Part shown: positions 31,510 through 33,696 of the stretch, in pieces
Layout of the letters: each line of letters opens with the position of its first letter
How positions within the stretch are numbered: position 1 is the stretch's first letter
Assembly (NCBI GenBank): GCA_028281535.1
Contig: JANQJS010000063.1
Span: 1-64,000 of the forward strand
Length of the DNA: 64,000 nucleotides
Reading direction: 5' to 3'
From: Sedimentisphaerales bacterium
Lineage (GTDB): Bacteria > Planctomycetota > Phycisphaerae > Sedimentisphaerales > SM23-30
Notes under the pieces: model-generated
Told to the model about the DNA's origin: nothing
Database searches by the model: none
Seen by the model: only the letters and a program-made list of their open reading frames with translations
Program-made: the position numbers and the translations under genes

Positions 31510-31863
31510 TTACATTTGTTTAAAAACGCTCCAAAAATCACCTGAATCTAGAAGAATATACATCTCATTTTCTAATGACTCAGTAACCACTAATCCAAAT
31601 TCACCTGTGTAAGGTTCATAAATTATTTTGTATCCATTTTTATTCAGTGGATGCTCCTGCATCACCAGCCAAGCATCAAAGTGGGTATATTCCGCTTTGC
31701 CTCGATACATAATACGGTTTTGTACTTTGACTTTTTTGGGCTCTATAAATAAATCCTTAAGCCCCATGCCTTGCCAATTGGCTTGTACCCATTTTCCACC
31801 GATTGCATCAATGAAAATCAACTTAACCTTTTCCGATGTTAATTCCTGCATTTGTAATTCCAT
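31510..31863 (-). CDS. Hypothetical 117-aa protein, divergent from rtcR and downstream of a sigma-54-like element
   Basis: The ORF has a good RBS (AAGGAAG, then 6 nt, then ATG). No recognisable motif and no signal peptide. Confidence 0.55.
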   Translation of the reverse strand: MELQMQELTSEKVKLIFIDAIGGKWVQANWQGMGLKDLFIEPKKVKVQNRIMYRGKAEYTHFDAWLVMQEHPLNKNGYKIIYEPYTGEFGLVVTESLENEMYILLDSGDFWSVFKQM

Positions 31864-31932
31864 GATTCTTCCTTTACTTAGTTTTGATTCAGAACACCCT
31901 TTGAATCATTTATCACATACAATTTACTATTA

Positions 31933-31948
31933 ACAATCCCTGTGCCAA
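31933..31948 (-). promoter_or_regulatory. Sigma-54-like -24/-12 element (TGGCACA-N4-TTGTT) upstream of the 117-aa gene, in the rtcR divergent intergenic region
   Basis: The minus strand reads TGGCAC AGGGA TTGTT, about 80 nt upstream of the ATG. The -24 is perfect; the -12 has GT in place of GC. Confidence 0.4.
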
Positions 31949-32106
31949 AAACTGAAACAAAAAAGAGAATAACCATATTATCCTGTTATAAAACAAGTTA
32001 CACTAAAATCCACACAAGCACCTCCAAAATCAGAGCTCAGGAAATATTTATTAAATTATAATATTTTATATTATTTTATAATTTTATATACTATAATTAA
32101 CACATC

Positions 32107-33696
32107 ATGAAACAGGTGCTTATTGGATTATTAGGAGTCAAACTTGATCGAGGCGACAAAGCTACCCGCTGGGAACATTGGCGACCGACGGTTTCGTTAT
32201 TTAGTCACGAAGACTTATTGTTTGATCGCTTTGACATGCTCTATGAAAAAAAATGGCAAAGACTAGCTAATACTGTCGAAAAAGATATCCAATCGATCTC
32301 TCCCGAAACAAAAGTTCATCAACACCAAGTGATGTTTCGTGATGCTTGGGATTTCGAAGATGTCTTTGGCACACTTCACGACTTTGCCAAAAGCTACCCA
32401 TTCAATCTAGACCAAGAGCAATACTATCTACACATAACAACAGGAACTCATGTCGCTCAAATCTGCGAGTTCTTGCTAGCAGAATCAAATTTTTTTCCAG
32501 CAAAACTAATCCAATCCAGTCCCCCTCCGATCAATGAACCGGAGAATCCCGCCCAATATAATATTATTGATTTAGATCTATCAAAATACGATCGCATTGC
32601 CACGCGATTTCACCAAGAATCGCAAGATGATATTTCCTTTTTAAAATCTGGTATCGAAACAAAAAATAAAAAGTTCAATCACTTAATAGAACAAATCGAA
32701 AAAGTAGCGATTCATTCTATGGAACCCATGCTTCTGATGGGCCCCACCGGAGCAGGCAAATCCCAACTGGCTAAACGCATCTTTGAACTCAAGAACCAGC
32801 GAAGCCAATGCAATGGGTCTTTTGTGGAAATTAATTGTGCAACCCTCCGTGGAGACCATGCCATGAGTTCACTTTTTGGACATAAGGCCGGAGCTTTTAC
32901 AGGAGCGACCAAAGACCGAACCGGCCAACTACTCAAAGCTAATGGCGGGATCTTGTTTCTCGATGAAATTGGAGAACTAGGTCTGGATGAACAAGCCATG
33001 ATTTTACGTGCCATTGAAGAAAAGCAATTTTTACCCTTAGGGGCAGATAAAGAAGTTCAAAGTAATTTCCAGCTCATCTGTGGGACAAATCGCGATTTAA
33101 ACCAGCAGATTATCAAAGGAAATTTTCGAGAGGACCTACTCGCTCGAATTAATTTATGGTCATTCCAATTACCAAGCCTGAATGAACGCCGAGAAGATAT
33201 TGAACCTAACTTATTATATGAACTGGAACGGTTTACCCAGAGCTATGGCAAGAAAGTGGTTTTCAATAAAGAAGCTCGGCAAAAATATCTTCAATTTGCC
33301 AAATCCCCAAAAGCAACCTGGGATGCCAATTTCAGGGACCTGAACGGCTCTATTAAACGCATGGCAACCCTGGCCATTTCGGGTCGTATTACTACCCAAG
33401 ACGTTAGCAATGAAATCAAACGCCTGAACTACACATGGCAAAGAAAAACAAGCAGCGGCAATATTGACATTCTGCTTAATTATTTTGATACCAATACAAT
33501 TAATAAAATGGATTATTTTGATCAGGTTCAATTAGCTGCTACGATCAAAGTTTGCCAAAAATCCAACAACCTTTCCCAAGCGGGACGGGAACTCTTTGCA
33601 GCATCACGCCTGAAAAAAAGTCAATCGAACGATTCAGACAGGCTAAAAAAATATCTGCATAAATTCGACCTCAGCTGGGACAAAATCCGATATTAA
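32107..33696 (+). CDS. rtcR: Sigma-54-dependent transcriptional activator RtcR (N-terminal CARF-like domain plus AAA+ sigma-54 interaction domain)
   Basis: 529 aa, collinear with E. coli RtcR. Matching blocks: WRPT(V/L)...D(R)(L/F)E/D(L/M)L, SPET(K/E)V, PWDFE(D/E)V, HDFA(K/R)(S/G)Y, HITTGTHVAQIC, LIQSSPP, IIDLDLS(K/R)YD, FLKSGI(E/A)T(K/R)N, GPTGAGKS, GAFTG, and ESR(E/D)DIEPNL-YE. Confidence 0.9.
   Translation: MKQVLIGLLGVKLDRGDKATRWEHWRPTVSLFSHEDLLFDRFDMLYEKKWQRLANTVEKDIQSISPETKVHQHQVMFRDAWDFEDVFGTLHDFAKSYPFNLDQEQYYLHITTGTHVAQICEFLLAESNFFPAKLIQSSPPPINEPENPAQYNIIDLDLSKYDRIATRFHQESQDDISFLKSGIETKNKKFNHLIEQIEKVAIHSMEPMLLMGPTGAGKSQLAKRIFELKNQRSQCNGSFVEINCATLRGDHAMSSLFGHKAGAFTGATKDRTGQLLKANGGILFLDEIGELGLDEQAMILRAIEEKQFLPLGADKEVQSNFQLICGTNRDLNQQIIKGNFREDLLARINLWSFQLPSLNERREDIEPNLLYELERFTQSYGKKVVFNKEARQKYLQFAKSPKATWDANFRDLNGSIKRMATLAISGRITTQDVSNEIKRLNYTWQRKTSSGNIDILLNYFDTNTINKMDYFDQVQLAATIKVCQKSNNLSQAGRELFAASRLKKSQSNDSDRLKKYLHKFDLSWDKIRY

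Follow-up and report, generated by a model that had tools for sequence, protein, structure and literature searches.

A small orphan gene behind the putative RtcR/sigma-54 promoter of a probable Band-7-type RNA-repair cluster in a Sedimentisphaerales bacterium

We analyzed the surroundings of rtcR in a 64,000-nucleotide (nt) stretch of DNA from a Sedimentisphaerales bacterium (GCA_028281535.1, contig JANQJS010000063.1, positions 1-64,000, forward strand; hereafter "the window"). Overall, the segment from rtcR to a divergent gene for a 117-amino-acid (aa) protein reads, with a probability that we put at roughly 0.58, as the control end of one RNA-repair cluster that is governed by RtcR/sigma-54 and is of the "Band-7 + tRNA-like RNA" type, a class that has already been described. 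The sole unusual feature on these comparisons is the small orphan gene itself, which stands directly behind the apparent operon promoter and is unlinked to RNA repair in the other genomes checked. A first-pass annotation of this DNA had taken rtcR to be uncoupled from rtcBA. Its divergent arrangement and its distance of ~4 kb were confirmed (rtcA and rtcB start 4.4 kb and 5.6 kb from the rtcR start), but uncoupling is not supported at the level of the locus: the gap is filled, on one strand, with RtcB-associated modules whose order recurs in relatives.

From the promoter to rtcB every gene and RNA lies on the minus strand, in the order 117-aa gene, 48-aa open reading frame (ORF), terminator, tRNA-Lys, leader RNA with an abutting pair of tRNA-like RNAs, Band_7, hairpin, tRNA-like RNA, RNase_T exonuclease, rtcA, rtcB, and terminator (Table 1). 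Both rtcA and rtcB are thereby co-oriented behind the promoter in the same cluster, in synteny (on gene order) with a Planctomycetota relative described below; the same RtcB cluster encodes a Band_7/SPFH protein, beside which three predicted tRNA-like noncoding RNAs are placed. On the other side of the promoter, the rtcR product has the make-up of an RtcR-type sigma-54 enhancer-binding protein, i.e., an N-terminal RtcR/CARF domain (Pfam PF06956, 6.9e-78, residues 2-182) followed by an AAA+ domain (Sigma54_activat, PF00158, 3.6e-49, residues 185-351) and AAA_lid_14. The GAFTGA loop and the Walker A motif (GPTGAGKS) are visible in its translation, and its C-terminal segment is helix-turn-helix (HTH)-like. 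It is 57-63% identical to RtcR proteins from many phyla, the closest in a search of 5.8 billion proteins being ≤63% identical, and in a cluster search the proteins of the locus were all singleton clusters.

We compared the window with eight related rtcR loci whose RtcR is 57-62% identical to its own: two from Ignavibacteria metagenome-assembled genomes (MAGs; L002, from the Ignavibacteriaceae MAG JABDPB010000056.1, and L003), five from metagenome contigs (L010-L014) and one from a Planctomycetota contig (L026). The Planctomycetota and Ignavibacteria relatives share the order and orientation of the window under a divergent RtcR. The most complete counterpart reads, at 1-8952 of L026, rtcR, divergent promoter, leader, abutting tRNA-like pair, ~400 nt, two tRNAs, Band_7, rtcA, a zf protein (zf_Tbcl), rtcB, DUF5677, Hen1, two copies of RlaP, and Pnkp; its Band_7, rtcA, and rtcB are 54%, 52%, and 60% identical to those of the window, and its rtcB starts 4.1 kb from rtcR. 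Promoter, a tRNA-like RNA (covering positions 5-66 of the Rfam tRNA model), and Band_7 follow one another in L002, L012, L013, and L014, with rtcA next where present, while L010 and L011 run promoter, rsr, Y RNAs and tRNAs, rtcA, i.e., with Rsr and Y RNAs instead of Band_7 (the YrlA of L010 scores 80.7 bits). The Band_7 protein of the window is 50-54% identical to the rtcR-adjacent Band_7 of L002, L012, and L026. Relative to these loci and, apparently, to the Band-7 class, what the window adds is the 117-aa orphan and the 48-aa ORF, then a strong terminator followed by a canonical tRNA-Lys, all between promoter and leader; relative to the Band-7 class it apparently also adds an exonuclease translationally coupled to rtcA and a tRNA-like RNA after Band_7.

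Described systems place the window in the same class. An RtcB gene beside a Band-7 protein and a "b7a-tRNA" (a tRNA associated with band-7) features in the summary of Burroughs & Aravind 2016 given in bioRxiv 10.1101/312249, and as far as that summary goes such systems resemble the window in having Band_7/SPFH and tRNA-like RNAs beside RtcB and RtcA. In Salmonella Typhimurium, rtcR is divergent from an rsr-yrlB-yrlA-rtcB-rtcA operon (PMC7790460; PMC4201824). Common to the two loci are a divergent RtcR, a sigma-54 promoter (putative in the window), a gene for a protein as well as tRNA-mimicking noncoding RNAs ahead of the rtc enzymes, and a distance of kilobases between rtcR and rtcBA, but the window differs in gene order (rtcA-rtcB), in its internal terminators, and in having Band_7 in place of Rsr/TROVE. 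Pfam detects no TROVE protein in the cluster, and the YrlA match is weak (28.7 vs 69 bits), so that the Ro60/TROVE protein and YrlA-class Y RNA of the Rsr type are both wanting. The Escherichia coli locus has the same RtcR activator (CARF-AAA+-HTH) and a sigma-54 -24/-12 promoter in the divergent intergenic region, where the window has its putative element facing away from rtcR; in E. coli, rtcB stands directly behind the promoter, whereas here the 117-aa ORF comes first and rtcA and rtcB start kilobases away. The expectation of the first-pass annotation that rtcR always abuts rtcBA therefore describes E. coli only, as Salmonella has rsr-yrlBA in between and P. aeruginosa carries the SPFH gene PaFlo8 within its rtc locus (PMC13086221), another instance of the Band-7 kind. 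With these loci and L026 in view, several kb separating rtcR from rtcBA is ordinary for the class. A functional analogue with a non-homologous regulator is the TrcR regulon of Anabaena, in which rtcB, a slipin/Band-7 gene plus a neighboring hypothetical gene (alr0739/alr0740), and an operon of tRNA genes are induced together under translational stress (PMC10272220). This is the same module set as in the RtcR clusters considered here; unlike in the window cluster, the genes are dispersed and controlled by a repressor of another family, with no sigma-54.

The element that the first-pass annotation had read as TGGCACA-N4-TTGTT is indeed found upstream of the 117-aa gene (TGGCACAGGGATTGTT), 69 nt from the ATG of the ORF (inferred 5' untranslated region ~58 nt) and 159 nt from the rtcR start codon, pointing away from rtcR. 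Taken alone, the motif is not above chance: TGGCACN5TTGCW with ≤1 mismatch has 6 matches in the window, where 2.98 would be expected, and at least 6 occur in 9/100 shuffles. The position of the element gives a different picture, as a TGGCA[CT]-N5-[TCG][TC]G[CTG] pattern directed away from rtcR and 127-162 nt from its start codon occurs in the window and in 8/8 related loci, i.e., in 9/9 loci from at least five lineages; by our own arithmetic, the chance of such a pattern within this 36-nt band is ~0.005 per locus. Because its position is conserved in this way, the sigma-54-like promoter is very probably genuine and orthologous to the ancestral RtcR-dependent operon promoter. A chance motif, with the 117-aa gene an ordinary sigma-70-transcribed neighbor of rtcR, would fit the lack of enrichment in the window, a -12 box that departs from consensus (TTGT, not TTGC), and an overlapping weak sigma-70-like match (TTGGCA-16-TAAATT, 9/12). 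Given the conserved position, the same TTGT variant in four relatives (L002, L003, L012, and L013), and an RtcR that is, judging by its domains, an obligate sigma-54 activator, we consider this very improbable. AT-rich palindromes adjoin the rtcR start upstream of the element, with TATAAA..TTATA-like repeats at the matching place in L002, L003, and L012-L014; they are a possible RtcR upstream activating sequence and/or the promoter of rtcR itself, and their low complexity makes either assignment uncertain.

Behind this promoter, the window departs from its relatives. The segment holding the leader and the tRNA-like pair (30640-30380) aligns with the leader and pair of L026, where the leader lies ~28 nt past the promoter. 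In L026 and the Ignavibacteria loci alike, the leader or tRNA-like RNA begins a few tens of nt past the promoter, while in the window the distance is ~1.3 kb. From this difference we infer that this lineage acquired an insert of ~1.3 kb, comprising the 117-aa gene, the 48-aa ORF, the terminator, and tRNA-Lys(UUU), which now separates the leader from the ancestral promoter. The 117-aa gene has a guanine + cytosine (GC) content of 0.359 vs 0.417 for the window, and the RNA of its 3' region folds stably (31512-31365, z = -3.1, none of 200 shuffles equally stable). The 48-aa ORF was called as a gene on a Logan contig, its gene status being uncertain; it has no Pfam match and no homologue or family, forming a singleton cluster. 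The terminator that follows is strong (dG -20.7 kcal/mol, z = -4.3, again 0/200 shuffles equally stable), and neither L002 nor L026 has a comparable minus-strand terminator in the interval from promoter to repair genes. Direct repeats that might flank the insert (AGTAAAT..GTGA..AATGATT; the 14-nt D13; the 12-nt CAAAAGTGAATA) were rejected, as the local alignment was matched by 108/300 shuffles. The exact 12-nt direct repeat CAAAAGTGAATA (minus strand) occurs at 30623-30634 and 30788-30799, right before the tRNA-like leader and right after tRNA-Lys, its copies bracketing a 165-nt segment with the TGGCACgaaGGTGCC hairpin; such short repeats are common in this AT-rich stretch.

Table 1 Features of the rtcR locus, ordered from rtcR through the cluster. 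Transfer RNA and tRNA-like elements were called by the Rfam tRNA and YrlA models (bits) and ARAGORN; hairpins were evaluated by free energy (dG) and z.
Feature	Position	Strand	Properties
rtcR	32107-33696	+	529 aa; sigma-54 enhancer-binding activator
AT-rich palindromic repeats	32040-32095		Inverted repeats I8 and I16; adjoin the rtcR start, ~100-140 nt upstream of the sigma-54 element
Sigma-54-type -24/-12 promoter (putative), TGGCACAGGGATTGTT	31947-31932	-	TGGCACA-GGGA-TTGTT
117-aa gene	31510-31863	-	ATG start, with a AAAGGAAG Shine-Dalgarno located 6 nt upstream; promoter-proximal gene
GC-rich 12-bp hairpin	31442-31471	-	3' region of the 117-aa gene; no adjacent U-tract
48-aa ORF	31066-31212	-	Hydrophobic core and acidic tail (MKETTQTIYFLSGINAGSVFVGFASSITCLESFNPIGCDLSDELGGDD); AAGGAAA ribosome-binding site; directly before the terminator
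Canonical intrinsic terminator	31038-30998	-	16-bp stem with 1-nt bulge, then U7
tRNA-Lys(UUU)	30803-30876	-	Rfam tRNA 74.5 bits and ARAGORN; canonical-looking; no encoded CCA
Leader RNA	30530-30640	-	Conserved; aligns with the L026 leader via blocks GGCCAGCGGC and GTTCCG.G..GGGTT.TGACGATGG
tRNA-like RNA, non-standard anticodon AAA	30457-30529	-	Rfam tRNA 63.5 bits; ARAGORN "Phe(aaa)"; no spacer to the next element
tRNA-like RNA, GAU anticodon loop	30382-30457	-	5-bp acceptor stem; ARAGORN; weak YrlA match, 28.7 bits (gathering score 69)
Band_7/SPFH protein	28687-29991	-	434 aa; Pfam Band_7 PF01145 4.5e-29; N-terminal internal repeats
12-bp hairpin after Band_7	28640-28670	-	Followed by AUAUAAUUUU, poor U-tract; dG -19.8 kcal/mol, z = -5.6
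tRNA-like RNA, anticodon UAG	28421-28497	-	Rfam tRNA 52.2 bits, several non-canonical pairs; ARAGORN; no long variable arm
DEDD 3'-5' exonuclease (RNase_T family)	27681-28226	-	Pfam RNase_T 1.5e-21; stop overlaps rtcA start by 4 nt
rtcA, RNA 3'-phosphate cyclase	26665-27684	-	Pfam RTC 9.1e-75; 49-54% identical to rtcA of L002, L010, L026
rtcB, RNA ligase	25148-26545	-	Pfam RtcB 4.9e-87; 60% identical to L026 RtcB; last gene of the cluster
Terminator-like hairpin closing the cluster	25120-25149	-	dG -16.9 kcal/mol, z = -4.8

If the locus works as one RtcR system, tRNA fragments carrying 2',3'-cyclic phosphate ends would activate RtcR, by analogy with Salmonella (PMC7790460), and sigma-54 RNA polymerase, starting at ~31921, would transcribe the 117-aa gene before any other. 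The tRNA-like RNAs, Band_7, the exonuclease, rtcA, and rtcB would then be reached by partial read-through of the terminator, from internal promoters, or by both. The downstream repair cluster would still belong to the same system; the probability given above applies to this model as a whole.

Several observations weigh against this model, in addition to the off-consensus -12 box. The strong intrinsic terminator with its U7 tract separates the 117-aa/48-aa unit from the rest, a second strong hairpin follows Band_7, and no such structures were found inside the operons of L002 and L026; because of these differences, continuous sigma-54 transcription into rtcBA is doubtful. A motif scan past the terminator yielded no other acceptable sigma-54 site: the candidate TGGCACGAAGGTGCC near 30757 was rejected for a GG-to-GC spacing one base short, and TGGAACTTAGCTTGAC at 30189 for its poor -12 box. 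Likewise, a promoter scan returned no convincing sigma-70 promoter before tRNA-Lys or the leader, and rpoN was not found among the ORFs of ≥330 aa in the 64 kb of the window. The apparent insert is without significant flanking repeats and without a mobility gene, and calling it an insertion relies on a comparison with relatives only ~60% identical in RtcR.

These observations bear on a functional decoupling, in which a cassette captured the ancestral promoter so that RtcR/sigma-54 would drive only the 117-aa and 48-aa genes and stop at the terminator, while tRNA-Lys, the tRNA-like RNAs, Band_7, the exonuclease, rtcA, and rtcB would be expressed from other, possibly constitutive promoters (a tRNA promoter, or the TATAAT in the hairpin after Band_7). 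Such an arrangement, unlikely in our estimate, would account for the strong canonical terminator, the lack of terminators within the L002 and L026 operons, and the lack of a second sigma-54 site downstream; a canonical tRNA-Lys right after a terminator would normally need its own promoter, and a promoter-like GTGCCA-17-TATAAT at 28661-28633 overlaps the hairpin after Band_7, which is possibly an attenuator or part of that promoter-like sequence. It is opposed by the lack of a convincing sigma-70 promoter past the terminator and ahead of tRNA-Lys or the leader, by the ancestral order and orientation of the whole cluster beside an intact rtcR, and by the occurrence of tRNA genes as ordinary cargo within the RtcR operons of relatives. 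Moreover, activation of RtcR in Salmonella and E. coli itself requires RtcA and RtcB (PMC7790460; PMC9650030), a reason to expect that co-regulation has persisted. The alternative of the first-pass annotation, a re-targeted RtcR, is not upheld as worded and survives only in this form, with the terminator at 31038-30998 as the structure that could isolate the 117-aa/48-aa unit. A bolder version, which we hold to be a long shot, is that the RtcR output has been rewired: the damage-responsive promoter would drive the terminator-bounded 117-aa protein and 48-aa hydrophobic peptide as an RNA-damage-induced effector, e.g., an inducible inhibitor of an RNA-cleaving toxin, with the tRNA-like decoys and repair enzymes under separate control.

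A word-index homology search with the 117-aa protein matched only itself, while an exhaustive HMMER search recovered 51 cluster representatives and a profile search 36 proteins. Members, of 103-111 aa, have in common the motifs WLVLEE.P...GYKI, FGLA, and, at the C-terminus, G.F..T...M, evidence that the protein belongs to a real but uncharacterized, sporadically distributed small family; neither the protein nor the family had a match in profile searches of Pfam, NCBIfam, PADLOC, or PDB sequences. An AlphaFold2 model of the 117-aa protein (predicted local distance difference test, pLDDT, 90) has a five-stranded antiparallel sheet preceded by one helix at the N-terminus and followed by another at the C-terminus, and the family consists of small cytoplasmic alpha+beta proteins. 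The window copy is the lowest-scoring member and lacks two near-invariant residues (H31->Q, G105->L), which marks it as an apparently divergent one. As to function, we would guess, with little confidence, at a small protein of a binding or inhibitor type. No known immunity family, whether of SMI1/KNR4 (SUKH) type or another, was matched in sequence or fold, nor was an adjacent toxin gene found, and tandem paralogues, as in an immunity array, were sought in the other loci, which had one copy each.

To assess linkage with RNA repair, we inspected 10 other members of the family in their own contigs (GC 0.41 to 0.73), a small sample with several short contigs. None had rtcR, rtcA, rtcB, or Band_7 nearby, and none had an upstream sigma-54 motif (0/10 for each). 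Their neighbors were variable, with strings of small unknown genes, PIN, HicAB, RhuM, GNAT, and HEAT with FGE-sulfatase; occasional members are fused to CPCC or HEAT domains. Conversely, a homologue of the 117-aa protein is missing from all eight related rtcR loci. As far as this sample goes, the result is one that the first-pass annotation had named as speaking against its proposal of a novel RtcR-regulon member, i.e., no synteny with rtcR in relatives. One part of that proposal stands: because the gene is the first behind the conserved promoter, it is a plausible RtcR/sigma-54-dependent transcript in this genome, and we regard it as probably so driven, as a lineage-specific passenger. The other part, a conserved regulon member, is not supported, with linkage at 0/10 and 0/8. 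Since the family is unrelated to rtc genes elsewhere, the protein is, on comparative grounds, a lineage-specific recruit, or passenger, behind the RtcR promoter and not a conserved RNA-damage factor. It could conceivably still be a true regulon member under selection that acts in the RNA-damage response, e.g., as an immunity-like protein or an inducible inhibitor directed against a toxin that cleaves RNA; its place directly behind the promoter would suit such a role, the missing linkage elsewhere would not, and we judge this improbable.

The window holds four tRNA-type genes in all, tRNA-Lys and the three tRNA-like elements. Of the latter, the GAU element aligns with the tRNA-like RNAs between promoter and Band_7 in L002, L012, L013, and L014 and is, on this alignment, orthologous to the Band-7-associated tRNA-like RNA; despite its short acceptor stem, an encoded ACCA follows it. 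Bacterial tRNA-Leu has a class II architecture. The element with anticodon UAG has no long variable arm, and for this reason is not a genuine bacterial tRNA-Leu. Anticodon loops of the orthologous elements vary among relatives (UAU, GUU, GAU, UGU, and GAG), a variation that might fit decoys or sensors for anticodon nucleases.

Some relatives carry larger sets of such genes. Directly 3' of rtcA, L002 has 18-20 tightly packed tRNA genes (60-1694), some of them non-canonical, e.g., 75-nt "Leu" genes, and its contig ends within the array, which resembles the stress-induced trn operon of Anabaena that is co-regulated with rtcB and the slipin gene (PMC10272220). In L010 (2233-9849), rsr is followed by YrlA-like RNAs interleaved with tRNA-Arg/Gly/Pro and by rtcA, hen1, and pnkp, with no rtcB on this stretch. 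The RtcR-divergent operons of L010 and L026 both combine several repair systems.

Two further regions of the window deserve mention. A perfect sigma-54 consensus, TGGCACTTCATTTGCA (42201-42186, minus strand), precedes by 62 nt the NMT1_2 substrate-binding gene (40691-42124), the first of a cyanate/nitrate-type operon of NMT1_2, permease, cyanase (cynS), and ABC genes. As a sequence match, this consensus is in keeping with sigma-54 use by the genome, and it suggests sigma-54 (NtrC-type) control of cyanate use. On the 3' side of rtcR (33911-37804, plus strand), a radical-SAM protein of 450 aa is followed by an 821-aa protein, the C-terminal half of which resembles GT4 glycosyltransferase families, including a weak Pfam "GT4-conflict" match; neither gene has an apparent relation to the rtc cluster.

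Taken together, the outcome is mainly a correction: a multi-kb gap between rtcR and rtcBA is normal in extended operons with Band-7 or Rsr and tRNA-mimicking RNAs, and is no sign of uncoupling. With this locus, a poorly sampled lineage joins the Band-7 / tRNA-like RNA-repair class, and an RtcR promoter is seen to be able to pick up unrelated cargo. If RNA damage does induce the 117-aa gene, this would provide a first functional handle on a wholly unannotated family, and the terminator-split layout would be a natural experiment on the required coupling of RtcR to RtcA and RtcB. The tRNA-like RNAs with their variable anticodon loops, together with the tRNA arrays of relatives, are probably of wider interest than the small protein.

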